A DNA stretch of 64,000 bases from a virus (IMGVR_UViG_3300027870_000002:1202-65201), one strand, 5' to 3'. Counted from the stretch's first letter, positions 871 through 18,830 are shown. Made by a program: numbers and translations. Notes: generated by a model from the sequence alone, not told the origin.

Positions 871-1223
871 TATGAGTTTAGAAATTTCCTTCTAGCATCG
901 CGGAGTCTCTGCTGTTCTCTAAGCTGACTTTCAGATTTCATCCTAGCATATAGAGTATTAAAAAGATCATCCAGTCCTGTACAAATTATATAGCCACACA
1001 TACCAACATCGCCGGATGCATATAAAGCTACGCCACTATCGTGCTTAAAATAATATGGCGTCTGTATGCGCCACTCATGTAGTGGGATTGCTCTAACCTT
1101 GGCCTGTACTTCGGCCATTTCAGCATCAGTTACATCAGCGCTACAGACGTTAGAACATTCTTCGCTTCGCTCTTTTCCACTTCTGTGTAGCGAGTTCTTG
1201 ACCAAGTTCCACAATCGAGACAT
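870..1223 (-). CDS. Hypothetical protein (start uncertain)
   Basis: ORF in operon. Confidence 0.55.
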   Translation of the reverse strand: MSRLWNLVKNSLHRSGKERSEECSNVCSADVTDAEMAEVQAKVRAIPLHEWRIQTPYYFKHDSGVALYASGDVGMCGYIICTGLDDLFNTLYARMKSESQLREQQRLRDARRKFLNS

Positions 1224-1876
1224 GCAATCCTCTTATAGATTCCTGTTTGGGTTTTGTAATAGCCGCGCTGCTGGATGTGCTTGCTGCCACACGTCGGACA
1301 CACACCCTTATTGCCATACAGATTGTGATTGGGGTGGTTGGCAATCCAAGGCTTGAGCTTCTCGTAAAGCTTCTCTAGAAGCTTGACGTCTTGCATGTTA
1401 TACTTCTTCATCTGGGCCCATGCCTTCTCATTTCCCTGAAGACAATCCACCCACATCTGAAAGCCTTCGTGTTCAAGCTTCTGTCCAATTCCAAGTTCAT
1501 CAGATACATGCTGAAGCTTGTTAGAGGGAAACTTGAATGCGCGCTTTGCCGTCTCTAGCAAGTCAATCTGTTTGTATGGACTCGGAGGAGACATGCCTTC
1601 TTTCAGAAACTCTCTGTTCAAGAGAGGAATGTCATGGCGCTTTCCGTTGTAGCTAACAACGGCATCGGCTTCGTCTAGCAGTGCATGGATAGAGGGTAGG
1701 AAGTGGTTATCGTCATAACGCGCGAATAACATATCCTTCTTACCATACCACTTAGCACTCCAGCACAATACCTTCCCATGATCTAGAAGCTGATCTAGGC
1801 TGAGCGTTTGGTTCCACATTCCCCATACGCCCCCAAGCAAGTACGAGTTTTCAATATCGAGCATTAAGATGTTGAT
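1130..1876 (-). CDS. RNase H-like 3'-5' exonuclease with C-terminal Zn ribbon; probable ATC start at 1876 (ATG alternative at 1864)
   Basis: LDIE, YNGKRHD, YNMQDV motifs; CPTC...CLDC; SD AAGGA 7 nt before ATC. Confidence 0.85.
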   Translation of the reverse strand: MNILMLDIENSYLLGGVWGMWNQTLSLDQLLDHGKVLCWSAKWYGKKDMLFARYDDNHFLPSIHALLDEADAVVSYNGKRHDIPLLNREFLKEGMSPPSPYKQIDLLETAKRAFKFPSNKLQHVSDELGIGQKLEHEGFQMWVDCLQGNEKAWAQMKKYNMQDVKLLEKLYEKLKPWIANHPNHNLYGNKGVCPTCGSKHIQQRGYYKTQTGIYKRIACLDCGTWSRTRYTEVEKSEAKNVLTSVALM

Positions 1877-1879
1877 AGA

Positions 1880-2086
1880 TTAGTCCTTATTGTTATTGAT
1901 TTGTTGGTCCAATATGTCTGCCCACTCTTCTAGCTCTAGCTCCTCTTCGCTATATTCTCTGTCGCAATCGTTGTTATACGATTGCTCCTCATAGAGGAGG
2001 GCCTCCACAAGCCGGTGCTGCTCCAAGAGCTCGCGCCGCGAACGTGGTAGTTGCTTGCCCAAGGGCATCAGCCTTCTCCTTATCAA
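1880..2086 (-). CDS. Hypothetical acidic protein
   Basis: ORF. Confidence 0.5.
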   Translation of the reverse strand: MIRRRLMPLGKQLPRSRRELLEQHRLVEALLYEEQSYNNDCDREYSEEELELEEWADILDQQINNNKD

Positions 2087-2285
2087 TTAGCATTTGAATG
2101 TAATGAATAGCCTTTTCCAAGTCTTCAATACCGCCCTTATTTCTATGACGGCATATGTACTTGATAGCATTGCCTTCTTCAAAGCCCAGATTGTTGGCCT
2201 GAATAAATTCAATGGGCTGTATCTTCATCTGCTTATAATGTGTACCTCCCACTTGCCGATTTAGCGAGTCCATATTATCGGGCAT
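1989..2285 (-). CDS. DUF3310 / T7 gp1.7-like nucleotide kinase family protein
   Basis: QVGGTHY...IQPIEFI...GNAIKYICR...KGGIEDLEKAIHY. Confidence 0.85.
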   Translation of the reverse strand: MPDNMDSLNRQVGGTHYKQMKIQPIEFIQANNLGFEEGNAIKYICRHRNKGGIEDLEKAIHYIQMLIDKEKADALGQATTTFAARALGAAPACGGPPL

Positions 2286-2610
2286 CACCCTCACCCTGAA
2301 GACGTCCCCTAGACTTTCTATTCTCCAACTTCCCAATGTTCATCTCCATCAATGCGCCAATAGAGGTGCCGGTTTCATTGCAATACTGGCTAATCATCCA
2401 TAGGCAATCGCCCATTTCTTTATCCACGCCTTCCTGCCAAGCCGTCATGTCTGTACCAGCATAGTCCCCCCGTACAAGCTTAGCTAACTTGCCCGCTACC
2501 TCGCCGGCCTCGCTGGCTAGCCCGAGGATAAGATACACCATCGCATCCCCCTCTTCGGTGGAGTAGATGGCAAAGTCTTTAGTGCGCTTCTGATATTCTT
2601 CGTTAGTCAA
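2275..2610 (-). CDS. MazG-like nucleotide pyrophosphohydrolase
   Basis: LGLASEAGEVAGK...KEMGDCLW...NIGKL..R; likely TTG start. Confidence 0.85.
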   Translation of the reverse strand: MTNEEYQKRTKDFAIYSTEEGDAMVYLILGLASEAGEVAGKLAKLVRGDYAGTDMTAWQEGVDKEMGDCLWMISQYCNETGTSIGALMEMNIGKLENRKSRGRLQGEGDAR

Positions 2611-2854
2611 TTGAGCAATACCTCGCTTCAGCGCGCACCCACTGCCCGTGGGCATATACAGTCTCACTTCTCAGGCCGCCCTCTGCCCAGTACGATACAC
2701 CAAGACTTCCTCCAAAGCGTTGATCCAAAACATACTTTCCGTCGGTCTCTTTGGTAGTGGTGAAATCTTCATACCTATCAGTGCCGGTTTGCACTCTTAC
2801 GTAGATACATTTAGTTTTCAACTTTCTTTCTATCCTCTCGTGTCTTACCATCAT
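2603..2854 (-). CDS. Hypothetical protein
   Basis: ORF in operon. Confidence 0.55.
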   Translation of the reverse strand: MMVRHERIERKLKTKCIYVRVQTGTDRYEDFTTTKETDGKYVLDQRFGGSLGVSYWAEGGLRSETVYAHGQWVRAEARYCSID

Positions 2855-3197
2855 GGCAGGGCTTACATAAAACTTGTAGGTTGTCTAGTTCACAGAACAA
2901 CGTCTTGACAAAATTAGGCAAGTCTTCCAATGTATTCAAACTACCGCAAGGTTTGATGTGATCTACTGTTACCTCACTATTCGCTTTCCACTTCTTGCAC
3001 TTGGCACATTGGTATTGCCATTTCAGACGCTTGTTCTTCTTGTCCTTGCTGGGGCGCTTGGCTGCATTCAGACAATCGTATATTGGCTTCCATCGCCTGC
3101 TTTTCTGGCGCAACGCCGCCCGAATAAAACTAAAAAACCCCGCCTTTGTCATTGTCCCTGAGGCGAATGGCCGCTCCACGTTGGCCCGTTTAGCCAT
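2811..3197 (-). CDS. HNH endonuclease
   Basis: YQCAKC...VDHIKPCG...NLQVLCKPCHDGKT. Confidence 0.9.
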   Translation of the reverse strand: MAKRANVERPFASGTMTKAGFFSFIRAALRQKSRRWKPIYDCLNAAKRPSKDKKNKRLKWQYQCAKCKKWKANSEVTVDHIKPCGSLNTLEDLPNFVKTLFCELDNLQVLCKPCHDGKTREDRKKVEN

Positions 3198-3472
3198 CAG
3201 ATGTCAGGCGCCTCGTCGTAAGTGTGGCACATCATATCTAAGCTAGGTTGAAAATAATATCGCACTCCATTCCTAGCTACTGAACTATAACCATGTGGCT
3301 CTGTTTGCACGAGGTCCTCTGTGTGCAGCTTCACCGCGCTATTCAGCCCCTTGCACTCAATCACCTGTGGATGGTACACATGCGGCTTGGGCCATAGGGC
3401 CGCACCAATAACAAGCACGCCAAATCCAGCAAAGCCCAACATAATACTCTTACCGATCCATTTAAGTTTCAT
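3197..3472 (-). CDS. Membrane-anchored hypothetical protein
   Basis: N-terminal hydrophobic helix. Confidence 0.6.
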   Translation of the reverse strand: MKLKWIGKSIMLGFAGFGVLVIGAALWPKPHVYHPQVIECKGLNSAVKLHTEDLVQTEPHGYSSVARNGVRYYFQPSLDMMCHTYDEAPDI

Positions 3473-4283
3473 TCCTGCTTCTCCTAATCCAGAGCAGTTT
3501 CTTAACTTCGTCTACAACATTATCAGTGGATATAACACTACCGTCTTCTGCAATATACCCACTTGGGTAGGCCTCTTTCCATGCGCGCCTAACAGCCTTA
3601 TCCATATCCCTAGCACCTTCCAGTAGCTTAGCTGCTGTAATGGGACCTACACCATCAATGCCGGGAATGTTATCTGTCCTGTCTCCCGTCAAGCATTGTA
3701 TGTAGTAGTTAAGCTCTGCCTGCTCATCATCAACTGTCTGCCATTCTTCCTTCTTCCAGTTGTAGTGGATTGATGGGATAGTGAGCAGGTCCTTGTCAAT
3801 GGACACGATAATACTATCATCGCCAGCCTGCTGAATCTCTGTGGCTCTGATGCCTATTTCGTCATCGGCTTCCTGCCCATCAACAACAATCCCCTTCCAT
3901 TTGTTCATGATGTATTGGCGAATAGCATCATAATGCACAGGCTTTGGTTGTACTCTATTAGCTTTGTAGCCGACGATGGTGGCAACATCTTTGCGGAAGT
4001 TGTCCACTCCAGATAGATATACTTCGTGCTTGTCGGCCTTAACACTATCCACAATCTTCAATAGCATTGTGTTGATAATGTGCAATGCGTTCTCTACTGG
4101 CTCTACCTCAATCTCTGTATACAAACATTTTGGATCGAGTCCATACTCAGAGCAGTACCACAAGGCGTCTGCTTTGGTGTTGAACACTGCCGTAGGGTCT
4201 GTCTCTAGCTTCCACTTGGATTTCTGTACAGCAAATCCCGCAGCATAGACGGGGCTATCTGCATCAATCAGCGCTATTCTCAT
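3462..4283 (-). CDS. 5'-3' exonuclease (T7 gp6/FEN-like)
   Basis: LIDAD, YKANR, EADD, SIDKDL, GDRTDNIPGIDGVGPITA. Confidence 0.92.
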   Translation of the reverse strand: MRIALIDADSPVYAAGFAVQKSKWKLETDPTAVFNTKADALWYCSEYGLDPKCLYTEIEVEPVENALHIINTMLLKIVDSVKADKHEVYLSGVDNFRKDVATIVGYKANRVQPKPVHYDAIRQYIMNKWKGIVVDGQEADDEIGIRATEIQQAGDDSIIVSIDKDLLTIPSIHYNWKKEEWQTVDDEQAELNYYIQCLTGDRTDNIPGIDGVGPITAAKLLEGARDMDKAVRRAWKEAYPSGYIAEDGSVISTDNVVDEVKKLLWIRRSRNET

Positions 4284-4400
4284 TAGCCATCCTGTAGCAC
4301 TTCACATAAATGCCGTAATGCTGGTAATACCAAAGCTTTGGATAGAGCGTAGGCGCATGCTTTTTTATCATCATCTGTTTCCACTCGTGGAAAGCTAACA

Positions 4401-4592
4401 TCAAAACCTCGCTACGCTCTTTTCTAAGACAGTGTTGCGAAACGCAAGTTCCCGAATAATGTAAATCAAATCGGTGCGTTCAAGGCTGTTAGCCTGCACA
4501 CTATCAATCAGCTTCATGATTTGCTCGTTGGTGTAGTCAGCGAATTCGCAGGCCTTAGCAGCAGCACCTGAGGAGTATTTCATTCCCATCAC
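4401..4592 (-). CDS. Hypothetical protein
   Basis: ORF. Confidence 0.55.
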   Translation of the reverse strand: MMGMKYSSGAAAKACEFADYTNEQIMKLIDSVQANSLERTDLIYIIRELAFRNTVLEKSVARF

Positions 4593-4852
4593 TTCCTATC
4601 CTTCTTGTGTAGGTCTTTGTTCTCTTTGCTGTAAAACTTCGCGTTTGTATCCGCCACTGCCGGCATTAGTTCCTGTGGCGTTATAATTGCTGAGCAGAGC
4701 AGCACCTGCGTACCATCTAGGGCATACTTCTGATAGTAGGAACATGCGCTCACTACGTTGTTCTCTCCGTCAGAATAACCAAGCCGATAGAATCCAAACA
4801 CAGACAGAAGTGTTAATGCTGATAGTAGGGCTCCTTGAAGAAATTGCTTCAC
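4589..4852 (-). CDS. Membrane-anchored hypothetical protein
   Basis: SD AAGGAGG, N-terminal TM helix. Confidence 0.65.
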   Translation of the reverse strand: MKQFLQGALLSALTLLSVFGFYRLGYSDGENNVVSACSYYQKYALDGTQVLLCSAIITPQELMPAVADTNAKFYSKENKDLHKKDRK

Positions 4853-5031
4853 CGCTCCTCCTTAGTCATTGCTAAGGCGTCCATTAGATAGCCAACTTCT
4901 GTCTGAAGATGGTCTGCCCAATCTACGCCACCGCCTAGCTGTATTTCTATACTAGCTGCTTTAAGCCTATCGGCTATTCTCCTAATAACAAGAGCTTGGC
5001 TTTTAGCGTATGATAAATCTAAACCGGTCAC
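4849..5031 (-). CDS. Hypothetical protein
   Basis: ORF with coupled start and stop. Confidence 0.55.
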   Translation of the reverse strand: MTGLDLSYAKSQALVIRRIADRLKAASIEIQLGGGVDWADHLQTEVGYLMDALAMTKEER

Positions 5032-5160
5032 TTATCTAGCCTCTCACATTGTTCACACCACGCCTTGAACCTATCTGAGGCAAGATATCTTTGCATGTCT
5101 AAGTGCATTACGTAGTTCTCGTCATAGTAATAACAATCGTAAATATATCTTCTACTATTA

Positions 5161-5880
5161 CTACTCAGTTGCGGAGATAAGGGCTTTGTAGCTGACTGGA
5201 AACAGCGGCTCAATAATTGCTGCACACATTTTAGCAATGTCTCTTACCTCCTTCTGCGCATGTGGATCAAGACGGAGCTTTAGGAAATGGGCCCAGTTGC
5301 GTAGATTGCCTGTCATGTAAAAGCTCGTGTACAGATTCTGCGGCAATATCATCCTTGCCTGCTCAGCACAGACACCATTATCGACCATACTCTTGTACAT
5401 TATCAAAACTTGCGATAACACTTCGTCCCTAATGTATTCGTCTACATTATCCCACATTTCGTTGCCACCAGAATACATGTATTCTGCAGCATCATCACTA
5501 CTGCCCTGCTTAACATTCTCAGCAGCCTTGCGCCATTTGTCTGGCCAATAGAATTCCAGATTGTCCTTGACGTAGCGCCTACTGATTTCATTGTAGCTAA
5601 ACGTACGATGGCGATGAATCTGACTGCGAACGAATAGCGGCACCTTCAAACGTAGCGTCGCGCCCTGATGCTCGAAGCATGAGAAATGTTTGTTCTTGGC
5701 TAAGAAGCCAATGAGCTTTTCGTCTTTAGCATCTAGATGCTTCTCAAACCACGTGTCACTATCTTGCGTCGCGAGGGAACATTCGACGATTTTCCATTCG
5801 CTCTCTTTATCCATGGACACTCGCGCCGCGTTAACGGCGCTGAGGTCGGAGCCATAGTGAGTGATATACTCAGCCTTCAT
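5161..5880 (-). CDS. thyX: Flavin-dependent thymidylate synthase
   Basis: HFSCFEH, RHRTFSYNEISRRY, EQARMILP, LRLDPHAQKEVR. Confidence 0.95.
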   Translation of the reverse strand: MKAEYITHYGSDLSAVNAARVSMDKESEWKIVECSLATQDSDTWFEKHLDAKDEKLIGFLAKNKHFSCFEHQGATLRLKVPLFVRSQIHRHRTFSYNEISRRYVKDNLEFYWPDKWRKAAENVKQGSSDDAAEYMYSGGNEMWDNVDEYIRDEVLSQVLIMYKSMVDNGVCAEQARMILPQNLYTSFYMTGNLRNWAHFLKLRLDPHAQKEVRDIAKMCAAIIEPLFPVSYKALISATE

Positions 5881-6088
5881 TCTTCTTCCTGAAGCTGTCG
5901 TTCTTCAAAGCCCAGTCTAGTTTATCTTGCAATGTAAGTAGTGCGTCTTCCAATACCTTATCACCAAGCCCTTCTCGCACATTTATGCGATCTTCTATAA
6001 AGAATGCAGCTGCTACTTTAATTGCACGGCGCTTGCCCGGATTGCGGATAGAGAGTATGATGCTTATTTCGCCGGGAGTATCCGCCAT
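5870..6088 (-). CDS. Hypothetical protein
   Basis: ORF. Confidence 0.6.
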   Translation of the reverse strand: MADTPGEISIILSIRNPGKRRAIKVAAAFFIEDRINVREGLGDKVLEDALLTLQDKLDWALKNDSFRKKNEG

Positions 6089-6756
6089 TAGTACACCACT
6101 GAGGTCATGTTAAACTGCACAGTTTTGGGTGCCGGCTGTGGAACATGTAGGCGCACATTAAACACAACATGCTGACCTAGAGCAATGTAACAGCCCGGCT
6201 TAGTGGGATCAGTGGAGAGTTTTGGAAAGGATTCGCCCGGCCCGCGCGTTGCTGTGCAAGCGCCTGCTACATTGCCCTTCACATTACCACTAAAATCTCC
6301 CACCTGCGTAGACCATGCACCATCTAGAACAGCTCCGTTATAGCTTGAGATGTTCACCATCACCTGCGCCTTGACATTTGGCATAGCATCCAAGGCCACA
6401 TAGCCGGGGCCAGTGAATTGCACAACGGCCGGCGAAGAGCCGTTAGCCCCCGGCCACGGCGTAATACCATCTATGCTATCACGATGGCCAAACAGATTGT
6501 CCCACCTGGTGATGTCAATTGTACGAACGCCGCTACCCGGAACATTGGGATATTTGATAGTGGCAGTGAGCTGCCGACCAGCTGGGTCGGGGGGCACTAC
6601 ACCGCAAGACCCCGGAGACGCGTCACGCATACCGACAAAGGGCGGAGCAACTTCCAGCGTACCACAATAAACGCGTTCGTCAACAATGTGAGTTTGCTTG
6701 GCAGCAAGAGCCGTACCGGAGCCAAGGGCAAGCATTAAAGCTAGAGCAAGTTTCAT
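6088..6756 (-). CDS. Secreted/periplasmic protein with signal peptide
   Basis: SD AGGAG; MKLALALMLALGSGTALA signal; four Cys; beta-rich. Confidence 0.7.
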   Translation of the reverse strand: MKLALALMLALGSGTALAAKQTHIVDERVYCGTLEVAPPFVGMRDASPGSCGVVPPDPAGRQLTATIKYPNVPGSGVRTIDITRWDNLFGHRDSIDGITPWPGANGSSPAVVQFTGPGYVALDAMPNVKAQVMVNISSYNGAVLDGAWSTQVGDFSGNVKGNVAGACTATRGPGESFPKLSTDPTKPGCYIALGQHVVFNVRLHVPQPAPKTVQFNMTSVVY

Positions 6757-6767
6757 AAATTCTCCTG

Positions 6768-8699: not shown

Positions 8700-8703
8700 T
8701 CCT

Positions 8704-8955
8704 TTAGTTTGGACGCGCTAGTTCTGCGCCGTCCCAATTAGCTAGCTCTTTGTTCTCCACTTCCTTGAGGAAGTCTTCACAATTGCGACATGTTTGAATA
8801 GCATGGAACAGCAACGTCGTAGATGATTCCGTCACCCCCGTGTCCCTGTTGATAATGCCGTAGCCCTTAACAGCTACACCATCCTCCATGTGATCGTCAA
8901 CAATACAAACATCAAAACGGCCGTATGTAAATAGGCTCTTATTGTTCTCTGTCAT
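8704..8955 (-). CDS. Hypothetical protein
   Basis: ORF with SD. Confidence 0.65.
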   Translation of the reverse strand: MTENNKSLFTYGRFDVCIVDDHMEDGVAVKGYGIINRDTGVTESSTTLLFHAIQTCRNCEDFLKEVENKELANWDGAELARPN

Positions 8956-8963
8956 TACATTCC

Positions 8964-9317
8964 TTAGGAATTAAGCATGTCCGTAAATTTCTGCAGCACA
9001 GCTAGGGCATCTTCACTATCGCCTAGCTCAATAGCATCTGTAGCGGTAATGAGAATATCATACTGTGCTCTGGCGTAAGCATCGTGCTTCGCTTGGAAAG
9101 CCACTTCTTCTTTAGAACGTACATGAGAAGCAATACTGTTCCACGAATTATTGCCCCATATGTTAGACGCTGCTACAAATCCAGCTTTCTCCAATACCTG
9201 CTGGATTTTGACGGCTTTGTCTGGAGAGACTGGTTTGGTGTTATGATGAGCCGCTACGTTGGCTCGTACAATATTGGCCAACTTCTCCTTCAAATACTTC
9301 TTCTGTTCTTTGTTCAC
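8964..9317 (-). CDS. Hypothetical protein
   Basis: ORF with SD GAGGA. Confidence 0.65.
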   Translation of the reverse strand: MNKEQKKYLKEKLANIVRANVAAHHNTKPVSPDKAVKIQQVLEKAGFVAASNIWGNNSWNSIASHVRSKEEVAFQAKHDAYARAQYDILITATDAIELGDSEDALAVLQKFTDMLNS

Positions 9318-9330
9318 TTTAGGTCCTCAG

Positions 9331-9355
9331 AAAGAGAAGGGAGCTTGCGCTCCCC
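9331..9355 (-). terminator. Rho-independent terminator
   Basis: GGGGAGC-GCAA-GCTCCCT followed by TCTCTTT. Confidence 0.7.
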
Positions 9356-9360
9356 TCAGA

Positions 9361-9660
9361 TTAAACAGACAATTCCTTTTCTTGCAATTCTAGCAGAGCG
9401 TTGATAACATCGGGGATGGTGAGTGCAGATGTTTCATAAACCATACCCCCGCCCATCTGCACAAATTCAATGCCCGGATATTCCGTATAGCATGTGTCGC
9501 AAAATCCCTCGACGATGGTAGTGGCCTCTACTCGAATAGGCTTTGGGCTAGCAAGTGCCCTATCAATCTTAACCTTTTCGCTTTTTCTCCAGTCTTGGCT
9601 TTGTTCAGTAAGCCATTGGCGTGCCCACTTATCCATCAACGCTTCATACTTGCTTGCCAC
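9361..9660 (-). CDS. Hypothetical protein with CxxC
   Basis: SD AAGGAG; GFCDTC. Confidence 0.65.
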   Translation of the reverse strand: MASKYEALMDKWARQWLTEQSQDWRKSEKVKIDRALASPKPIRVEATTIVEGFCDTCYTEYPGIEFVQMGGGMVYETSALTIPDVINALLELQEKELSV

Positions 9661-9669
9661 AAATTCTCC

Positions 9670-10260: not shown

Positions 10261-10688
10261 TAGTATTCCTCTCGTAGATGTTCTCTAATCATCATCAATA
10301 GTTGCCCTAAATGATTGAAACCCTTACCTTCACACACGCCCCAATAGGTGTCGTGCCAAGTGTTGCCTTCAATCAATAGGACGTCACCAGTAGCCATAAG
10401 CTTTTGAGCATATTCATCTATGTGAAATTTCTGCAGTAGCAAATCGCACATCACAGACAGCTTAACTTGCTCCCAATCTTTACGAAGCGTTAGCCTATAT
10501 CCCTGAGCCTTGGCTCCATTAGGACTCACCTCCGCCTGCACACGCAGGCGTTCTTCTTTGTCCAACGTCTTCGCTGCCTGATATGCGTGCTCAATAGTCG
10601 GATATTTAACACCGTCTAATTGCACTACGGATGGAGCGAAGTTGGACAGCCATCTATACTCTCCTCCGAAGTAGGTTATGTCTGCCAA
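10257..10688 (-). CDS. NADAR (YbiA-like) family hydrolase
   Basis: WLSNF, EHAYQAAK, LRKDWEQVK, EGNTWHDTYWG, NHLGQLLM. Confidence 0.9.
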   Translation of the reverse strand: MADITYFGGEYRWLSNFAPSVVQLDGVKYPTIEHAYQAAKTLDKEERLRVQAEVSPNGAKAQGYRLTLRKDWEQVKLSVMCDLLLQKFHIDEYAQKLMATGDVLLIEGNTWHDTYWGVCEGKGFNHLGQLLMMIREHLREEYY

Positions 10689-12559
10689 ACTAGTGTCTCC
10701 CTTTCATCTGGAAATGCCTTCACTTTATATCCCTTACCACTACCCCACTTATCCCCCCACTTAATCTCCGCTCCTAGCGGGACAGTGAATTCGTAGCCAT
10801 ACACTTCTTCAAGAAAGTTGTACACGTCTGTTGTGAATGCGTGTGCAATAATCTCCTTGAGCCTGTCCATGTCTGCGTCTTCTCTCACTTCCATGATGAT
10901 AGAGTCATGCACTGTAAGGATGATACGCACAGGCCAATCCTTAAGCTTGCGCCACAAACTTACGAGAACGATGGGGATGATTTCTCCTGTAGCAAATCCC
11001 TGAATGGGATAGTTGAAGATGGAGGTGGTGTTAGTGATGAAGCCGCTCTTCGTCACCGTCGTGTCGGGCCAATAGAAGATGAGCCCGTACGGTGTACGTA
11101 GCTCCTTGTCTCTCAGAACATCATACGTCCAACTGGTTTGTGTCTGATAGATGCCCGAGTATTTCTTCTGGAAGAATTCGCAGTATTTCTTTTCTGCTGG
11201 ATGCTGACCTCTGCCTCCGTACAACGGCTTGAATGTTTGAGGTTTGGCTGGCTGTCGCGCAGCCTTAGCATCAAGTCCCTTAAAATCTGGGTGCGTTCCA
11301 TCGTCTAGAAAAACTGCTGCTGTTGCGGAGTGGATGTCTGCGTCATTACAAATTTCTTCGTATGCCACATCATCGTGCCCCATGTCAGCTGCGACACGGA
11401 ATTCAATTTGACTCCCGTCTGCCTCTAACATCACCCACCCGCTCTCCCGAGGAGTGACGAGTCTCTTATACTCGCGGGGCATGTTCTGCAACTGTGCTGT
11501 CAGCTCGTCTCCATTCTCGTCGATGAGCTTTCTTCCGCTACTGCTAAGTCTGTGTGTGCCTGTGCTTCCCTGATTGAACGCTCCGTGGAAAATACCATTA
11601 TGCTGGTCGCACACATGCTTGAAAAACTTAAGCGTCTTACTTAGCTTAGTGGCCAGTTTAGCCAGTTTAGAATACGTTGAAATAAAGTGGCGTTGTTCTT
11701 TCGTAGCGGCACGGAGCTGGGCGATAGTGCCTGCGGAAGCAGAACGGGCGCCGCCTGCTGTACGCACTGGGTTGCCGCGGCGGTCTTTGACTTCTTCAAA
11801 CCCGAGCGTGTCGTAGAGGAGGCTCGCGACTTGTTGCTTCGAGTTGTAGTTGATGGGCGCGATGCTTTCGAGTTCACGTTTCGTGTCTTCGTGTTCCTTG
11901 ACGACTTGGTAGTATTCTTCTTCGACGGCTTGCTTGTCAAGATGGATTCCTTGTTTTTCAATGTCCGTTAGGACAGGGGTTAGTAGGCAACGAGCATAAA
12001 CTAGGTGAAGCTGTTCTCTCTCTACAATCTCCTCTCTTTGACAACGGAATAGCTCTAAAGTTCCCCGAACATCCTCATAACAATACGCATGTAACATGCT
12101 GCGAGGAATGTTGGCAGGATCGATGCCGAGCTTAATCATCCCACCTACTACATCTTCCTTGCCCTGCAGGCCCCTGCGCACGAGCATGGAATTCAAATCC
12201 TTTAAGAGCCGGCGATTTCCGGCGATGACCCACTCAGCTAACATCGTGTCCCACACGAGAACATCGTGTAGGTCGAGGCCTATACGGTCTAGCCAGCCAA
12301 GCTCAAACTTGGCGTTCTGTGCTACGATGAAGTCTACTTCCTGTACAGCCTTGAGCAATTCCTGCTGCTCGTATTCCTGTCCGAAGCAGCTGTGATATTT
12401 GTTGTCTCTGCTGTCATACCAGACAGCTAGGACAAGTTGGTTGGCGAGATTGAGAGGGCTTCCGAATTCAAGTGTGGTCGTTTCAAAGTCGATGACGAGG
12501 TATGTGCCTGTTAAGTATTTGTCGATAGCGCCCCCTGTACTTCGAATTCTTCTATCAAT
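10676..12559 (-). CDS. Family A DNA polymerase with 3'-5' exonuclease; probable ATT start
   Basis: ExoI YLVIDFET upstream of the ORF-track start; QNAKFE; motif A EADGSQIEFR, B RQPAKPQTFKPLYG, C VHDS. Confidence 0.93.
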   Translation of the reverse strand: MDRRIRSTGGAIDKYLTGTYLVIDFETTTLEFGSPLNLANQLVLAVWYDSRDNKYHSCFGQEYEQQELLKAVQEVDFIVAQNAKFELGWLDRIGLDLHDVLVWDTMLAEWVIAGNRRLLKDLNSMLVRRGLQGKEDVVGGMIKLGIDPANIPRSMLHAYCYEDVRGTLELFRCQREEIVEREQLHLVYARCLLTPVLTDIEKQGIHLDKQAVEEEYYQVVKEHEDTKRELESIAPINYNSKQQVASLLYDTLGFEEVKDRRGNPVRTAGGARSASAGTIAQLRAATKEQRHFISTYSKLAKLATKLSKTLKFFKHVCDQHNGIFHGAFNQGSTGTHRLSSSGRKLIDENGDELTAQLQNMPREYKRLVTPRESGWVMLEADGSQIEFRVAADMGHDDVAYEEICNDADIHSATAAVFLDDGTHPDFKGLDAKAARQPAKPQTFKPLYGGRGQHPAEKKYCEFFQKKYSGIYQTQTSWTYDVLRDKELRTPYGLIFYWPDTTVTKSGFITNTTSIFNYPIQGFATGEIIPIVLVSLWRKLKDWPVRIILTVHDSIIMEVREDADMDRLKEIIAHAFTTDVYNFLEEVYGYEFTVPLGAEIKWGDKWGSGKGYKVKAFPDERETLVWQT

Positions 12560-12693
12560 GAATATTCTCCATTTCCCACTTCTAGTTGGACTTCTGCTAC
12601 CGAAGCATCTTCGTAGGTGGCGAAGACACCAACAACAGTGCTGCCCTCATAATCAAGTCCGTGCTGTAGAACATATACTTTGTTCATCCCCAA
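12511..12693 (-). CDS. Small hypothetical protein
   Basis: VYVL...YEGSTVVGVFAT type small phage protein. Confidence 0.6.
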   Translation of the reverse strand: MGMNKVYVLQHGLDYEGSTVVGVFATYEDASVAEVQLEVGNGEYSLIEEFEVQGALSTNT

Positions 12694-12896
12694 AATCCCA
12701 TGTCCTGTGTTTCCCCGAACGACAAATCGCTATCGTCTGGCTCGCCTTCGTATGGGGGGTCATACACTTGGCTTTCAAGGAACAAAGCCTCGCCGTTTTT
12801 ATTCTTCCCAACACACCGCTCGCCCTTTCCGACACGATAGCCGAGAGCATTCCATTCTTTTAGTGTAAGTCTCTTCATTTGAATTGTCTTCCTCAT
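12684..12896 (-). CDS. Hypothetical protein
   Basis: TLKEWNALGYRVGKGER...LFLESQV. Confidence 0.65.
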   Translation of the reverse strand: MRKTIQMKRLTLKEWNALGYRVGKGERCVGKNKNGEALFLESQVYDPPYEGEPDDSDLSFGETQDMGFWG

Positions 12897-13133
12897 TTGA
12901 ATATGTCCATGTAGAACAGAATAGCAAACAGCGTTAAAGCAAAGGCTTTGTAAAAGCTTGTTATTGTTTTTATGTTCTTAGCCTATGAATATGGAACAAA
13001 AAGAAATAGAGAAAACTAGAAACCAACACCCCCCCTCCCCCTCACGCTTTGTGAAGAGTTTCTCCACTTAAGGAGCCCCCGTTAGGGGAGAACGAAAGAC
13101 AAAAAGAGACAAAGAAAAAGATTTGTAACAGGC

Positions 13134-13160
13134 TTAGACAGCCTTGTCTCAAGAAAGTTC
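13134..13160 (-). promoter_or_regulatory. SigmaE/AlgU-type promoter upstream of the DNA polymerase operon
   Basis: GAACTT-N16-TCTAA. Confidence 0.55.
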
Positions 13161-13310
13161 AATCTCCCCTTCATGTGAGAAGCTAAGTGTCTTATCTTCG
13201 TTGATTTGCTCCAAACATCGGCGATCTTCGTTCATCCTGTGCCAGCCATGCGCAGGGCCTTCTCCTAGGTATAGCCTGCCAAATTGGTCTGTAAATACGT
13301 TGTACTTCAT
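13149..13310 (-). CDS. Hypothetical protein
   Basis: MKYNVFTD... ORF. Confidence 0.5.
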   Translation of the reverse strand: MKYNVFTDQFGRLYLGEGPAHGWHRMNEDRRCLEQINEDKTLSFSHEGEIELS

Positions 13311-13657
13311 ACAAGACTCGCTATTCCTAGATAGGTGAGGGTGTGCAGGTATTGATCCGCACCAAGCAGCCACCAAAACTTCTCGCTGCTCTCGGCCTTC
13401 CAGCCGTAGTGCTTGTTGACGTTCATCTTAGCCCAATCAATGTGGTAGTGGACAACGCCATCCAGCAGCCCAACTGCCAGCGCAGCGGGCAGGCCCAAGC
13501 CCAGCAGGGCTACGATGAAGGCTGTCGCTGCGGCGTGTAGGCCAGCATGCTCAAGACCTCCGGGATGGCCATAAGTTCCCTTGTTCATCCATTGGTAGGG
13601 GCGCTGTAGAAAGAAATCTACAATCAGATGTTTGGTGAATAACCAGAACAGTAGCAT
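13307..13657 (-). CDS. DUF3307 membrane protein
   Basis: KHLIVDFFLQ...HAGLH...HYHIDWAK...GADQYLH. Confidence 0.85.
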   Translation of the reverse strand: MLLFWLFTKHLIVDFFLQRPYQWMNKGTYGHPGGLEHAGLHAAATAFIVALLGLGLPAALAVGLLDGVVHYHIDWAKMNVNKHYGWKAESSEKFWWLLGADQYLHTLTYLGIASLV

Positions 13658-14019
13658 TAGTAGGTCTCCGCGTGCCTTTCTAGCAGGTCCGCAATTTCTG
13701 GAAAAGATAGGTTTAATTCATCATTGCAATATGCAGCACTACACCAGTTCCCACCACAAAACAAAAACGGATTGAAACAGCTACCCTTTACAGGTTCCGT
13801 AATACCTTTAGAAGCGCCCCATTTCGGTGAGGGCACTTCCATATTAGCTTCTACAACACCATCAAGTGCGTGCTGTAAAACCCCCAAACAACAATAGCTA
13901 TCTGTCTTAGCATCAAACATAGTGTGCTTTCCTTGCTGATATTCCCCACTGCGCAAAGCCGCTGTCCACTTCTTCAACAGAAGTTTGGGGATTCTGAATA
14001 TCTTCTCAACGCTTTCCAT
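13657..14019 (-). CDS. Hypothetical phage protein
   Basis: KWTAALRSGEYQQG...CCLGV...SFPEIAD. Confidence 0.7.
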   Translation of the reverse strand: MESVEKIFRIPKLLLKKWTAALRSGEYQQGKHTMFDAKTDSYCCLGVLQHALDGVVEANMEVPSPKWGASKGITEPVKGSCFNPFLFCGGNWCSAAYCNDELNLSFPEIADLLERHAETY

Positions 14020-14554
14020 TTAACACCTCGTCTAATAGAATGGGACGAAAGTTGGTCTGTTCTACGGACACACAGACGTAACGCTCGTCCCTCACAAATT
14101 CTGATATGACGCCAATGCCTGTCATAGTTTCTATTTCTTCGAGGACACTGGTAGCATGCAGATGCCCGTGCACGTTAACAGCCCATCGGTTTAGCTGAGA
14201 TGGATGGACAGGGATGTGCGTGAGAATAGCCTTGCCATGCTGAGAACATCCTCGAACGTCGTCGAAATACTCTGCATATTCGCCTAATGCGCCGGTATCG
14301 TGGTTGCCCTTAACGAGAATTTTACGTCCATTCAATTCCCTCGCAAGCCAAATGTATTTCTTGTTGACAGCGAAATCACCAAGCACATATACCATGTCGT
14401 GGTCATGTACAACAGCGTTCCAATTTTCAATCAGTGCCTTGTTCATATCGTCTGCATTGTCCCAAGGCCGCAGCTTAGTGCCGTCGGCCTTGAGAAATTC
14501 GCATACACCTTGGTGTCCGAAGTGTAGGTCGGCTGTTACAAACGTCTTAGCCAT
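14006..14554 (-). CDS. Calcineurin-like metallophosphoesterase
   Basis: DLHFGH, LGD, GNHD, THIP, HGHLH. Confidence 0.92.
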   Translation of the reverse strand: MAKTFVTADLHFGHQGVCEFLKADGTKLRPWDNADDMNKALIENWNAVVHDHDMVYVLGDFAVNKKYIWLARELNGRKILVKGNHDTGALGEYAEYFDDVRGCSQHGKAILTHIPVHPSQLNRWAVNVHGHLHATSVLEEIETMTGIGVISEFVRDERYVCVSVEQTNFRPILLDEVLNGKR

Positions 14555-14557
14555 ATT

Positions 14558-14797
14558 CTACCCAATCTCCAAGCCCTGTTTGACGGGCGTTCCGTAATCG
14601 GCGCTTTTCTTGGTAAGTTTATTGTATCTAGTTATCAATTCTTGCGCGGCGGCGTACGAAGGCAGCTTTGCATATCTTACGTAAGAGAAAGGCCACCACA
14701 TGGCATCTCTATAAAGGTCGCTATCCAGATAGGTGTATAAAAGCCAGCCACGACGAACAGCGTATGTCCCGTCTTCAAACTTCACAATTTTCATCAC
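14558..14797 (-). CDS. Hypothetical protein
   Basis: ORF. Confidence 0.6.
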   Translation of the reverse strand: MMKIVKFEDGTYAVRRGWLLYTYLDSDLYRDAMWWPFSYVRYAKLPSYAAAQELITRYNKLTKKSADYGTPVKQGLEIG

Positions 14798-15996
14798 ATG
14801 TTCTCCACTCTGGAAATGAATTGGTGCATCTTCACTAGGAATTGCTGATGCAATCCCCCCACCTTATTCTTAGGCAGGCTAATACCGCGGATGCTCTGGC
14901 TCTCGTATTGCTTGGTGACGCCTACACCAATCATCACATCTACAGCAGCAGGAATGCCTGTGTTGCTGAAGTCTACGTCTCCCATGTCCAAGAATATCTT
15001 CTCGTCAGCACTGTCTCCTGCCTGTGTCACACTGATAGCCAAAGCATTGTGCTTCTTAGCCAGATTGCGCATGCCTGTAGCCGCAGCTTCCAGCTGATTG
15101 ACACGGGTGTCAGCCTTAACATGTAGGTTGCGTATCTGATCGACGATGAAACAGTCGGGGCGATACTTTGACAGGATGCGGTCGATGAATTGAGGACTGC
15201 CCGGATTGATGGGAATAAAGCGCAAGTTCGCCCATCCTCGCTCATCTAGCAGCTTCTGCGCAGCTTCTGGGTTGGTCTTGATTTGCTCCTCTGTCATGCC
15301 CGTGAAGCAGCATTGCGCTCTGAGGATGGTGTCCTCGACAGGCTCTTCATTTCCGAAGATGATGACGGACAGTCCCTGATAGGCTAGACCATAGGCCATC
15401 GTAAGGGTGATGGCCGTCTTACCCGTTTCTGGCCGTGCATATACGAGGAAGTGGTGGCCTCGTCTAGTCTTGCCGCGTAGCGCGTCATTCAGTGCCTTGG
15501 GCAGCATCTTGATACGAGCACCAATATCTGATAGCTCTTCGATTACAGAAGCAATGGATACGTTGTGGTATTCTTCTTCATCATCTTCCTCCGCTGTCTC
15601 AGCGATGTTGTCGTATTCAGCACGCAGGTCTTCGATAGCCTTCTCGTCTCCGTTCAGGAGCGCTTCAGCTAAGCGATTGCCTACGTCTTTCTTACGCCCA
15701 TCCAACACAAGATGGGCTACATTCTCAGCCGACACATCCATTGCTGCGCATTCACGCAGGTAGTTGACATAGACGTTGCTGCTCTTGTCTGGCAAATCGT
15801 TTCGGATTTGCTGTTCGATAATATCTACATCAACTTTCTCCGCCTTTATGTCCCGTTCATACCACTTGTTGAACATGCCCAGAAGCAGTGTGGTGTACGG
15901 GCTATACCCGTCTTTGATGTCAGAGCTACCAGCAATCTTGGAGAATGCACTCCTAGATTTGATGGCAGCTGCGACAATTTTCTTTTCGATGCTCAT
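14794..15996 (-). CDS. DnaB-like replicative helicase
   Basis: Walker A ARPETGKT, NEE, IVDQ, SVTQA, KNK. Confidence 0.92.
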   Translation of the reverse strand: MSIEKKIVAAAIKSRSAFSKIAGSSDIKDGYSPYTTLLLGMFNKWYERDIKAEKVDVDIIEQQIRNDLPDKSSNVYVNYLRECAAMDVSAENVAHLVLDGRKKDVGNRLAEALLNGDEKAIEDLRAEYDNIAETAEEDDEEEYHNVSIASVIEELSDIGARIKMLPKALNDALRGKTRRGHHFLVYARPETGKTAITLTMAYGLAYQGLSVIIFGNEEPVEDTILRAQCCFTGMTEEQIKTNPEAAQKLLDERGWANLRFIPINPGSPQFIDRILSKYRPDCFIVDQIRNLHVKADTRVNQLEAAATGMRNLAKKHNALAISVTQAGDSADEKIFLDMGDVDFSNTGIPAAVDVMIGVGVTKQYESQSIRGISLPKNKVGGLHQQFLVKMHQFISRVENM

Positions 15997-16817
15997 GCAA
16001 ACATCCTAGCGATCTCTTCTGAAGGCGTATCCTTCAAGTCTTTCTTCAAGGGCATGAAAGACACGTTGTCAATGATGCCCTGTAGCTGGCGCACATACTT
16101 AGCGCCAATTTCTTTAGCATCCTCGTCCAAAGCAAATATCAAACGCTTAGGTTTGAAGCGCACAAGTTCATCAATCTTTCCATTGGAAAGTTGCGTAGAC
16201 AGCAGTGCGCAGCAATCCACCTTGGCAAACCTAGCCGTCTTTATAGCAGACAACTGATCTTCCACAACCACCAGTGCCGTTGCTAGGTTAGACTGTGAAA
16301 CATACAGGCGGTTCCCTCCCATGAAGTGGAAGGACATGCATGCGGCAGCGCTATCGCTTAGGTAGGTGAGGGCCTTTGGCGTCTCGCCAGAGAGGCTCCG
16401 CAGCGTATACCCTACGCACCTACAGAGGCGGTCTTTGATGGGCATAGCGAGCCTGCCACGACCGCTGGGCACCCATCTAAATCCCTCCCAATTGATGTCA
16501 GCATTAGTGAGTTCATACTTATCCTTCAACACCTCCCTCACACCTGTGGGGATGTCCTCAAAGGGAACCAGTAGCTTCTCATGGGCTACGGTTTTTCGTG
16601 GTACGTTAGAAACAGCGCCTGTATTCATGGCGAGGCTCCCTTTAAATCCGCACTTTGCCCTAAAGCAAATCCACTGTATCTTGGCAGGAGATACATTGAT
16701 AGACAACGACTGGTCATGGTTAAGACCACCCTTGCACGAGGGGCATCTCAGTTTGCTGTGCTGTCCCTGCCCCAACTGCAGGGCTATCAACTTTACTTGG
16801 CTCCTTAAATCTATCAT
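15993..16817 (-). CDS. DNA primase (Zn finger + TOPRIM)
   Basis: CPSC...CFRAKC; VVVEDQLSA; LDEDA. Confidence 0.9.
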   Translation of the reverse strand: MIDLRSQVKLIALQLGQGQHSKLRCPSCKGGLNHDQSLSINVSPAKIQWICFRAKCGFKGSLAMNTGAVSNVPRKTVAHEKLLVPFEDIPTGVREVLKDKYELTNADINWEGFRWVPSGRGRLAMPIKDRLCRCVGYTLRSLSGETPKALTYLSDSAAACMSFHFMGGNRLYVSQSNLATALVVVEDQLSAIKTARFAKVDCCALLSTQLSNGKIDELVRFKPKRLIFALDEDAKEIGAKYVRQLQGIIDNVSFMPLKKDLKDTPSEEIARMFA

Positions 16818-17379
16818 CGATATTCACCCGAAGCCTACTAAATCGCGTCTTGACTTGTTTAATTGCATTTGCAAAAGTACGCTTGGTCCAACTGAGGGTA
16901 GGCGGCGTAATGGGCATGTTCCTAAGAATATGTGTACTGTGCAGATATCTGGAGTTGGTGATAAGAAGCATCACCATTAGCAAACTGGAGCCCGGATGTA
17001 CAGGGTTCTCAAATAAAGGGGAGCACATGTATGTCCATTTTTTCCCGGCCACAATGGCCGCCATAATGTCCCCCGTACAGGCGGTAATGGCGGTTTCCTT
17101 AACTATGGCGTTTCCACGTAAAGGCGACAGATCGAGATGCCGCTCCAGACTGCTTGTGTTATTCAAATTGTCTGAAAGGATAACACTACTATTTCCAAAT
17201 TTCGCTATGAATGCCTTCATAAACGCGTCAGAATTTACAACCGCCGTGAGATGCTCCTTTGAAGTGAGGGGCCCTACAACCTTCAAGAAAGCAATATCAT
17301 TAAGCCCGCAGTTGCTTGAGCACTGCTTCGCGTACCCTCCAATACTAAACTTCTTATCTTCAAAATAAAATTCAGACAT
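16720..17379 (-). CDS. Hypothetical protein (NCG/CCG-motif family)
   Basis: SSNCGLN...FENPVHPG. Confidence 0.65.
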   Translation of the reverse strand: MSEFYFEDKKFSIGGYAKQCSSNCGLNDIAFLKVVGPLTSKEHLTAVVNSDAFMKAFIAKFGNSSVILSDNLNNTSSLERHLDLSPLRGNAIVKETAITACTGDIMAAIVAGKKWTYMCSPLFENPVHPGSSLLMVMLLITNSRYLHSTHILRNMPITPPTLSWTKRTFANAIKQVKTRFSRLRVNIDDRFKEPSKVDSPAVGAGTAQQTEMPLVQGWS

Positions 17380-18818
17380 TACACATTACCCATTAGAGCC
17401 GGATCACGACAGCATGTTGCACAAATCGGATAGGCGCCTGCGCCTGACGTGTGCCACCCTAGATGAGGAGCATCGGCCAAACTAATGTTGCAGGTGCAGT
17501 TGCTACACCCATCCTTTACCAAGCTGAGAAATTCACCGACAGTCACAAGCTTACCTCGTGGCCCTTTAACACCGGCCGCCCAAGGAATGTCATCTAAGTC
17601 ATCTAAATCTGCAAGCGTTGGCGGCTCTTCTGTTTTAGATTCCTTGCGCTCACGCTCTTCATTTGTAAAGAAAGACACGTCAGGAGGAGACAGGATGATT
17701 ACAGACTGGCATATCCCCGTCTTCTTGTCGATGATGTTTCGCATACCGATGACATTGCACAGAACGCGGTCTGCATCACGCACATTTTCCATCACTGTTT
17801 GAGACATGCTGCGAATCACCGCGTCCTTGATGATTGCAGCCTCATCATCGACCTCAGTGATTAGTTCGCCACGCAAGTCCCAGCGCTGTTGATTAGTGGT
17901 GCCAACAGATTCTCTTGCAATCTCTGCCCGCGAGAAAAAGAATTCTACCTTCTCCATGTGCTTAAACCCACTCTTGTTCAGAGCTGTGGGGGTATAGAGG
18001 TCTTCCACTAGAAGGTTGGCGTTGTCAGTTACCAGTCGCGAAGACCCGCTAGGCCGAAGATGCTCCCGTGGAGCGTGGGCAGTTGCAACGGCGCGCTTGG
18101 GTTCTGGTACAGCTTCCACAGCATACTGTCGCAAATCTCCTCGCGGATCAAACGTATAGATTTGCCCCTTCTCTGGGTAAACTGGGCGCTCGATAGCCAA
18201 GCCATTGCGGGAAGCCAGAGCATACAACATCTGGGCTTCTGATGCAATCAGCATCTGGTTCTTGCCATCAACGTATGCCCAGTGAATGGGGCGGCCACCA
18301 TTAGCAGCGATATGAATGCGGTTGTCTGGAGTGCTAGCCCAAACAAGGGCGTAGGCACCATGCAGATGATTAGCCATAGCATCCAGTGCGCCGTGTTTGG
18401 CAATCTTGTAGTAGAGCCAGTCACTGTCAACCTCGAAGCTGACATTATCCTCTTTGCGCATCCATGTATTCAACGTGCCGTTGTGCACGCCGATAATCAT
18501 ACCGTCATCAGTGTAGTGCTCAAACGGATGAGCATTCTCTTGAGAGACAGTACCATGTGTTGCAGCACGATGGTGCATGATGGTGGCAAGGCTAGTGTCT
18601 GCATCCTTGAAGAAATCTTGTGCCCGCTTGTTGCGAGCAAAGTGGTAACCATCCACGTCAAGCTTGTGGTGGCGAATGTTCCATCCCTTATTCACCTGAA
18701 ACACGCCAGTGCTGTCGTCGCCTCTCACCAAGCCCCAGATGGAGCCCTGAAGCATGTATTGTTGAAGCCCTTGGTTGTAGCCAGTGTCGCCGTTAATGAT
18801 GCCAAGAATTCCGCAAAT
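17379..18818 (-). CDS. Class II (Ntn) glutamine amidotransferase; ATT start giving M-C-G-I-L-G
   Basis: AAGGAG-N8-ATT TGC GGA ATT; RGDDSTG, HHRAATHG, NAHPF, HNGT, VDSD. Confidence 0.92.
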   Translation of the reverse strand: MCGILGIINGDTGYNQGLQQYMLQGSIWGLVRGDDSTGVFQVNKGWNIRHHKLDVDGYHFARNKRAQDFFKDADTSLATIMHHRAATHGTVSQENAHPFEHYTDDGMIIGVHNGTLNTWMRKEDNVSFEVDSDWLYYKIAKHGALDAMANHLHGAYALVWASTPDNRIHIAANGGRPIHWAYVDGKNQMLIASEAQMLYALASRNGLAIERPVYPEKGQIYTFDPRGDLRQYAVEAVPEPKRAVATAHAPREHLRPSGSSRLVTDNANLLVEDLYTPTALNKSGFKHMEKVEFFFSRAEIARESVGTTNQQRWDLRGELITEVDDEAAIIKDAVIRSMSQTVMENVRDADRVLCNVIGMRNIIDKKTGICQSVIILSPPDVSFFTNEERERKESKTEEPPTLADLDDLDDIPWAAGVKGPRGKLVTVGEFLSLVKDGCSNCTCNISLADAPHLGWHTSGAGAYPICATCCRDPALMGNV

Positions 18819-18830
18819 GACGCTTTCTCC

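Follow-up and report, generated by a model that had tools for sequence, protein, structure and literature searches.

The DNA analysed here, called the window throughout, is a stretch of 64,000 nucleotides (nt) that covers bases 1202-65201 of a 65,201-base IMG/VR virus record (IMGVR_UViG_3300027870_000002), rated 100% complete. Minus-strand genes from 1 to ~37 kb form a replication and nucleotide-metabolism module, and the structural genes come next, on the plus strand. Our subject is a set of three minus-strand genes, encoding a class II glutamine amidotransferase (GATase), a family A DNA polymerase (pol) and an RNase H-like exonuclease, each of which appears to start at a near-cognate codon of the series ATT, ATC and ATA (ATH). 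Besides these three, Pfam scans of the window identified a 5'-3' exonuclease (FEN), ThyX, a class II RNR, a NADAR protein, a DnaB-like helicase, a primase, an RNA ligase, NAPRTase fragments, a Macro-domain protein and a PRPP-synthetase-like protein; the GATase gene adjoins amidoligase, GGACT, COOH-NH2 ligase and ATP-grasp genes. The gene set and the scoring of Shine-Dalgarno (SD) sequences were home-made.

A megablast search of window positions 1-20000 against 50,697 phage records gave no match. Among named phages, Stenotrophomonas phage StenR_269 and Xanthomonas phage DES1 come closest; StenR_269 is syntenic, with a pol that is 46% identical over residues 1-611, and the describers of these two podophages have proposed a new family for them (PMC10747016). 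Assembly error is unlikely, because an independent Logan assembly, made from a single DNA run that is probably the source sample, agreed with window positions 1000-19000 with 0 differences, at a word depth of ~205. The sequencing runs listed included no RNA run.

Start sites of three minus-strand genes

The GATase coding sequence (17379..18818, minus strand; 479 codons plus stop) specifies an N-terminal nucleophile (Ntn) enzyme, which matches the Pfam model GATase_6 with 46.1 bits (cut-off 27) and also GATase_4 and GATase_7. Its putative ATT start codon (18816..18818) stands directly before the Cys1 codon and is separated by an 8-nt spacer from the SD sequence TAAGGAG (18827..18833), the TAA of which terminates the preceding amidoligase gene (Amidoligase_2; 18831..20000, minus strand), 12 nt before the ATT. 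The junction reads TAAGGAG-AAAGCGTC-ATT-TGC-GGA-ATT-CTT-GGC. From the stop at 18833 the frame contains no ATG, GTG or TTG until ATG 18755, 21 codons downstream. A phmmer search of the PDB with this protein gave 0 matches, and a search with a 30-sequence profile then succeeded: the Cys that follows the ATT aligns to Cys1 of GlmS (1xff, E 5e-23) and of PurF (1ecb and 1ao0), which pins the position of the start. C1 and G2 are invariant in the 30 sequences, and H111, N112, G113 and D130 are likewise invariant, in alignment with the HNG of GlmS.

The pol coding sequence (10676..12526, minus strand; 616 codons plus stop) includes an N-terminal 3'-5' exonuclease domain and matches DNA_pol_A with 130.5 bits. 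No ATG, GTG or TTG occurs between the stop at 12649 and TTG 12358, before which the frame is open for 96 codons, and this TTG lies 44 codons past the Exo I Asp of LVIDFETT. The Asp-Phe-Glu of the motif (DFE; 12482..12490, minus strand) is thus encoded upstream of the first canonical start, and D13, F14 and E15 are invariant in the family alignment (A1). The most likely start, favoured by conservation with one relative, is the ATC at 12524..12526, preceded by AGGGGG-CGCT; the arrangement GCT-ATC-GAC behind an SD is common to the window and the nearest relative (L003, see below). The SD-like AGGGGG (12531..12536, minus strand; 4-nt spacer) corresponds to AGGAGG with one G.U wobble position and would presumably pair with the anti-SD. 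A 58-codon open reading frame (ORF) in another frame (12511..12687, minus strand) begins upstream and has its stop 13-16 nt downstream of the ATC, so that the two overlap. No ATG, GTG or TTG precedes the essential residues of pol and GATase, which leaves neither gene a canonical start.

The third gene (1130..1876, minus strand; 248 codons plus stop) encodes a DnaQ/RNase H-like exonuclease with a C-terminal 4-Cys element (RNase_H_2, 51.7 bits). Its ATC start codon (1874..1876) lies six codons before the catalytic-motif Asp, which is the family start position, with a 7-nt spacer to the SD sequence TAAGGA (1884..1889, minus strand). The junction is TAAGGA-C-TAA-TCT-ATC-AAC-ATC-TTA-ATG-CTC-GAT-ATT-GAA, where the in-frame TAA (1882..1880) ends an upstream 62-codon ORF (1880..2068, minus strand) that has its own strong SD; 3 nt separate this stop from the ATC. 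The ATG at 1862..1864 stands just 2 codons ahead of the Asp, at a distance of 19 nt from the SD, and is read as an internal Met5, in line with the original prediction, which had singled out the well-spaced ATC 1876 and the distant ATG. The prediction had also argued that the ATC restores the first beta-strand. In an AlphaFold2 model (mean predicted local distance difference test score 83.6, and 94 for residues 1-10), which suggests an RNase H-like fold, the first strand comprises residues 3-10 (ILMLDIEN) and carries the D-x-E residues D7 and E9, both invariant in 25 homologues. It therefore includes residues before Met5, as argued, although the predicted effect is modest: a start at Met5 would take away two strand residues. 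Overall, the claim that three enzymes in the window have near-cognate starts proved to be real, the sequence being as described and homology supporting each case.

Conservation and recurrence in related phages

Relatives were collected in an IMG/VR survey with an alignment query, which gave 80 loci with 10 kb flanks, and in a metagenome scan, which gave 80 more; they are given L numbers below. Many of these loci are related to each other, and locus counts are not event counts. A scan of IMG/VR with the single GATase protein had produced 5 pattern matches, 0 of them confirmed; a pol query and then the alignment query worked.

The nearest relative is IMG/VR contig L003 (whole record G001, 64,258 bases), with identities of 73% in pol, 70% in the exonuclease and 38% in GATase, and all three ATH starts are present in it. 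The start region of its GATase gene reads TAA-GGA-GAA-CGT-GCC-ATT-TGT-GGT (L003:2473-2496); homology of the window GATase to this orthologue extends from codon 0 after the window stop, whereas the first canonical start in the window frame is codon 25. In pol, TAA-GGA-GCT-GCT-ATC-GAC precedes VVVDFET, with an in-frame TAA 3 codons upstream and no canonical start before DFET. The exonuclease gene reads TAA-GCT-ATC-CGT-ATA-CTG-TCT-CTA-GAC-ATT-GAA; the codon aligned to the window ATG is TCT (Ser), and the first canonical codon is found 20 codons in, past the D-I-E motif. Fourfold degenerate sites are saturated between the window and G001 (33% identical, 1139/3413), and ATT, ATC and ATC are nonetheless all kept. 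Counterparts in G001 exist for 56 of the 96 crude ORFs in the window, and among these GATase, pol and the exonuclease are the only ones without an aligned canonical start. Twelve other pairs that aligned a few codons further upstream were rejected as candidates: an ATG or GTG lies at the point where the shared protein sequence begins or just upstream of it, and the extra match is translated SD region.

In GATase the codon before the Cys is a start codon in 39/39 loci (ATG 31, GTG 3, TTG 1, ATT 4). The four ATT loci are the window, L003, L013 and L075, each with an SD at an aligned spacing of 7-8. Eleven further distinct metagenome contigs have ATG (8) or ATT (3; L104, L120 and L122), seven other rows of that survey being duplicates of IMG/VR contigs; L120 and L122 have an in-frame TTG 18 codons upstream as well as the ATT. 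DES1 uses TTG. Non-ATG GATase starts are enriched in the clade of the window, with 5/9 compared to 4/30 outside it (p=0.018).

The GATase ribosome-binding site and first codons of the window (18813-18833, minus strand) and L104 (L104:4430-4456) can be summarised as GGAGAAAG[C/T]GTC-ATT-TG[C/T]-GGA-ATT. In this region the two have almost the same DNA, while their GATase proteins are 34% and their pols 42% identical. This likeness could reflect either a constraint on the initiation region or an exchange of the 5' end of the gene.

The exonuclease family has the start M-K/R-I/V-L-x-L-D-I-E, for which 30 loci gave ATG 16, TTG 2, GTG 1, ATC 3 (the window, L003 and L016) and a start elsewhere in 8. 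For pol, the stretch from the stop to the Asp lacks any canonical codon in six of 82 loci (the window, L003, L006, L011, L007 and L008), and the same is true of L093 and L094 from the metagenome, where the survey covered the 14 most similar of the 80 loci. The sole canonical codon of L012 pol is a TTG at -1, next to the Asp, and its ATT occupies the exact position of the ATG of M-T-L-P-x-F-L in L009, L010 and DES1. The distance of the pol start from the Asp varies in the clade (-12, -19, -15, -11/-12 and -23 codons), and all of these starts are ATH. On the pol tree the weak-start loci fall into one clade with the window, and StenR_269 into a neighbouring clade. Weak starts occur on more than one replication enzyme in L012 (pol ATT, FEN ATT, GATase GTG) and in L013 (GATase ATT, pol ATA or TTG). 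These results answer the call of the original prediction for a check of conservation: the nearest relative has all three starts, and ATH starts recur in these families.

The pol gene of StenR_269 (L002, OR838459.1; locus 11950-12021) is annotated from an ATG 6 codons before the Exo I Asp, and the conserved N-terminal motif PIFVGPQGLDIY lies upstream of that ATG. The sequence there is AGGAGG-ACTA-ATT, with the ATT overlapping the upstream TAA as TAATT. Homologue alignments reach beyond the annotated ATG in 70/81 cases, so that the true start probably lies further upstream, most likely at this ATT. The gene directly downstream of pol (9670-10260, minus strand, in the window) has 204 codons, no Pfam match and a presence in 78 loci; it starts with TTG in clade members L003, L005, L006, L011 and L010, and possibly in the window (TTG-ATG).

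The pattern of an SD of at least 5 nt followed by ATH upstream of the first canonical start is not diagnostic alone, as it occurs in 8/96 crude ORFs of the window. Homology backs only GATase and the exonuclease among these eight, and the AGGGGG of pol is missed by the motif. Two other candidates were rejected: ATT 14854 lies inside the 3' end of the helicase gene with a GTG-ATG start downstream, and ATC 62390 precedes an ATG at a TGATG junction. What sets the three genes above chance is that catalytic or family N-terminal residues are encoded upstream of their canonical starts and that the ATH aligns with the ATG, GTG or TTG of homologues. Taken together, the alignments of these families show where the starts lie, and that they are conserved and recur in relatives.

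We also screened 83 loci for stop-to-stop ORFs of at least 80 codons in which protein conservation reaches back beyond the first canonical codon. The screen comprised 4,892 ORFs, with 867 plus-strand ORFs in 73 clusters having enough divergent homologues, and it flagged 53 plus-strand ORFs: 8 of pol, 5 of GATase, 2 of the exonuclease, 4 of FEN and 14 others that were inspected, plus 20 rows that were not inspected singly and include alternate-frame RNR shadows, split RNR or helicase pieces and duplicates. The flag on L016 GATase is false, its start being ATG. Thirteen of the 14 others have canonical starts, and one (L016|19210) has no start of any kind. Homology-supported ATH starts were confined to pol, GATase, the exonuclease and one FEN (4/73 clusters), the last being the L012 FEN with GAGGTGA-AGA-ATT. 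Eight control families (helicase, primase, the gene after pol, FEN, amidoligase, GGACT, COOH-NH2 ligase and ThyX) were no richer in non-ATG calls inside the clade (25/65) than outside it (100/289; p=0.57, with a crude caller), and the clade members of three of these families with calls of 'none' had ATG or TTG starts on inspection. Because ATH starts are confined to a few gene families and the control families are canonical, the phenomenon belongs to particular genes and not to the genome or host.

Weak starts, enzyme output and alternative explanations

The reading we favour, with a probability of about 0.7, is that translation of GATase, pol and the exonuclease begins in each case at a near-cognate codon (AUU, AUC and AUC, respectively) and that the weak codon lowers their output. 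The initiator fMet-tRNA would read the near-cognate codon; a long SD would direct the ribosome to it and keep the weak start recognisable, with the start lying within a few nt of the stop of the upstream cistron or overlapping it. A lowered initiation rate would then yield little catalytic protein relative to the operon neighbours, and in GATase removal of the initiator Met would expose the Cys1 nucleophile. A well-spaced SD precedes every ATH start in the window and in relatives. The low output, selection for it and a contribution of coupling to the upstream cistron are what we infer. In E. coli reporters, the output of AUU, AUC and AUA was reported as 1-2% of AUG (bioRxiv 10.1101/063800), and another source puts AUU 6-8x below AUG (PMC3592434). 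The three codons are probably genuine, selected weak starts that hold enzyme amounts down. Deliberate throttling, as suggested in the original prediction, is the most economical reading, and it fits the attenuation described for non-canonical starts combined with extended SDs (PMC13009471).

Several observations weigh against this reading. The exact codon in the window pol is uncertain, as ATT 12559 (GGAG, spacing 6) and ATC 12493 are also in frame. The next-nearest relatives, L090 and L091 (pol 65% identical), have AGGAGG-GACACA-ATG for pol, and the GATase start of L091 is ATG; most relatives use ATG, and the weak start could be dispensable and nearly neutral. An SD of at least 6 nt is found in 2/3 ATH genes (3/3 counting AGGGGG) compared to 16/91 canonical genes, a comparison that rests on 3 genes and gives p=0.09 with the strict motif. 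An upstream ORF ends at most 30 nt away in 13/14 ATH cases, with ATAA and TAATT overlaps in L007/L008 and StenR_269, respectively, but in these compact genomes a nearby upstream stop is the rule for every gene, and this evidence for coupling does not discriminate. The control-family calls come from a crude automatic caller that returned many 'none', with the clade members of three families checked by eye. Finally, the N-termini and the low output of the window proteins are deduced from sequence comparison and from values published for other systems.

The dispensability just mentioned could be taken further: ATG-to-ATH changes might be nearly neutral drift, tolerated because a strong SD and coupling suffice, with codons flipping back and forth and no adaptive or regulatory role. 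The fixed GATase position does vary freely among relatives (ATG, GTG, TTG, ATT), close relatives switch between ATC and ATG, and in vitro, AUA and AUU mRNAs are reported to give 50-95% of the AUG level when their context is optimised (PMC5499595). We nevertheless consider drift unlikely, because ATH is found in only 4/73 ORF clusters and is absent from control families of the same genomes, because the start site in the pol clade has moved several times and is ATH each time, and because the ATT, ATC and ATC are kept between the window and G001 despite saturation (at 0.33 each, three third bases would agree by chance with a probability of ~0.04). Far less credible is the proposal that the ATH codons are not starts at all and that these genes are pseudogenes, assembly errors or read-through or frameshift fusions with the upstream ORF, self-processed in the case of the Ntn amidotransferase. 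Some PurF enzymes have a propeptide, the window GATase and exonuclease starts each follow an in-frame TAA that belongs to the gene upstream, and the ORF overlapping the pol start could enter the pol frame by a -1 shift. Yet all three ORFs are intact and of full length in several independent contigs, the second assembly agrees without differences, and a well-spaced SD stands ahead of every ATH. The frame relation is not conserved either: the L003 amidoligase gene ends 22 nt upstream of GATase in another frame, and L003 pol has an in-frame TAA where the window has an out-of-frame upstream ORF. On inspection of the sequence, no slippery heptamer was seen at the pol junction.

The original prediction went beyond throttling and proposed that the ATH genes form a regulon that acts as a timing switch, gated by IF3 status, for example through a phage protein that relaxes start-codon discrimination. 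Another host physiological signal, or a shift in the IF3:mRNA ratio during infection, could also serve as the gate. The three genes do co-occur and are co-conserved in the window and G001, and several clade members, such as L012 and L013, combine weak starts on two or more replication enzymes. Published work also lends it some plausibility: in E. coli extracts, no other class of mRNA responded as strongly as AUU mRNAs to added IF3, temperature and nutrient state (PMC5499595), and IF3 overexpression was reported to reduce coupled re-initiation and to block M13 growth (PMC2268962). However, the window and G001 are sister genomes, so that their co-occurrence amounts to one evolutionary event, and cross-tabulation of pol and GATase ATH starts (2, 5; 2, 30) gives a Fisher p of 0.14, the 2 loci with both being the sisters. 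Pol in L090 and L091 and GATase in L091 use ATG, and ATH appears on different genes in different lineages. A search of the 65.2 kb record for the known domains IF3_N, IF3_C and Pkinase gave nothing at E<=1, and 40 window proteins searched against Pfam included no translation factor. With ATG in these close relatives, no significant co-occurrence and no IF3-like domain found, the regulon and its phage-driven gate are not supported, and we think it quite unlikely that the genes are coordinated in this way.

Operator-like RNA structure was not apparent at the starts. Eight 90-nt start windows, when folded, gave z scores from -2.04 to +1.01 relative to shuffles with no common structure, and the three sites of the window had no structure beyond shuffles (z = 0.04, 1.00 and 1.01). 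By analogy with the E. coli systems, a state-dependent output of the ATH genes is possible. One could speculate further that, in a deep clade of ~60-66 kb podophages, pol and, in sub-lineages, exonucleases and the amidotransferase are held on AUU, AUC or AUA by selection and tied to host initiation fidelity (IF3, ppGpp, temperature), a weak start being re-created whenever the start site moves. This is an improbable scenario in our judgement; if true, the phage would possess a sensor or timer that works on the principle of infC autoregulation.

Weak starts that limit output, as favoured here, have well-described cellular counterparts. E. coli infC resembles the phage genes in having an AUU start behind an SD, where the weak codon limits output, and the thrS-infC junction UAA-GGU-AUU, with its 3-nt gap, has the layout of the exonuclease TAA-TCT-ATC (PMC3592434). 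In contrast to the phage genes, which encode a polymerase, an exonuclease and an amidotransferase, infC is autoregulatory and its own product discriminates against AUU; a phage-encoded factor that alters start-codon discrimination, by which such autoregulation would be recognised, was not found among the known domains searched. E. coli pcnB, the second confirmed AUU case in that species (bioRxiv 10.1101/063800; pcnB is also cited in the reference list of PMC13009471), is similar in that an inefficient AUU start holds an enzyme low, but it is a single chromosomal gene, whereas the phage has three genes in one genome and uses AUC besides AUU. In S. aureus, cvfC1 (AUU), ccpN (AUA) and infC (AUA) have conserved starts, all with an extended SD, and non-canonical starts reached ~10% of AUG in reporters, the figure for ccpN being medium-dependent (PMC13009471). 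The ATH starts of the phage also stand behind long SDs (TAAGGAG, TAAGGA and AGGGGG); the S. aureus genes, unlike these, are cellular regulators of a Gram-positive bacterium mapped by ribosome profiling, the phage cases coming from comparative sequence only.

The StenR_269/DES1 group (~65 kb podophages, unclassified Caudoviricetes) shares with the window a syntenic replication and amidoligase-GATase module. StenR_269, with GATase at 37% identity, resembles the window in that its pol is most likely ATT-started, and differs in its GATase (ATG) and exonuclease (GTG) starts; DES1 differs in starting pol with ATG and GATase with TTG. A term look-up for start codons in the StenR_269 paper returned 0 occurrences (PMC10747016). 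We found no paper on AUU or AUC starts of phage polymerase, exonuclease or amidotransferase genes in the main texts of open-access papers and bioRxiv preprints. The window starts would extend the known attenuation by a near-cognate start and a strong SD to further genes. The reported ATH share of annotated bacterial starts is 0.004-0.024% (PMC5499595), and three such starts among ~94 window genes are far above it. Gene callers restricted to ATG, GTG and TTG truncate or miss these genes, so that pol loses its Exo I motif and GATase its Cys1. The Ntn amidotransferase is a natural reporter, because Cys1 fixes its start position. As the cultured relative StenR_269, a phage of Stenotrophomonas rhizophila, probably has an ATT-started pol, throttling or timing is directly testable.

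Further features of the window and its relatives

The FEN gene of the window (3465..4283) has a normal ATG. In the FEN genes of divergent relatives (L013:18079-18200, L015:20640-20780 and L041:3830-3960; also L098 and L122), the N-terminus (M...LVD) ends at a TAG. The remainder (DILxYR...) follows in the -1 frame, with 5 extra nt spanning or adjoining the TAG and an Asp codon on each side, 8 nt apart, in L013, L015 and L041. The split may mark a frameshift or bypass site that recurs in these genes or, alternatively, a short leader ORF that has been conserved.

A nadV/NAPRTase-like gene of the window (23120-24657, minus strand) appears broken. A 37-codon frame with an ATG behind AGGAG overlaps the TGA of the Macro-domain ORF (24028..24612), and its sequence, MKGLQAMLLADFYKLSH..., presumably resembles a phosphoribosyltransferase N-terminus. 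The match to the NAPRTase Pfam model (positions 119-221 of its 239) falls in another frame (23422..24024), which has no canonical start before codon 41. The Macro and NAPRTase ORFs (23422..24657) both lack a counterpart in G001. On the plus strand, a 1098-codon ORF (49041..52334) overlaps the end of a 609-codon ORF (47323..49149) by ~108 nt (49041-49149). Its G001 alignment starts 13 codons upstream of the ATG, which lies at a CTG-ATG-A junction, and probably reflects conservation of the overlapping upstream gene. The ORF of L016 for which the screen found no start (L016:19210-19624) is HNH-like, a homologue of window 2814..3197 aligned from the first codons; the 70 codons that precede its first GTG include neither an ATG, GTG or TTG nor an ATH.

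ARAGORN identified four tRNAs in the window, Arg(TCT) at 29016-29092, Pro(TGG) at 37116-37192, Trp(CCA) at 37198-37272 and Met(CAT) at 31800-31876 (minus strand). The last was considered as a phage-encoded initiator tRNA and rejected, as it has a paired G1:C72, the anticodon stem GGCGA/UCGCU and 91-93% identity to E. coli tRNA-Ile genes; judged by these features, this tRNA(CAU) is most likely a lysidine-type tRNA-Ile2 reading AUA.

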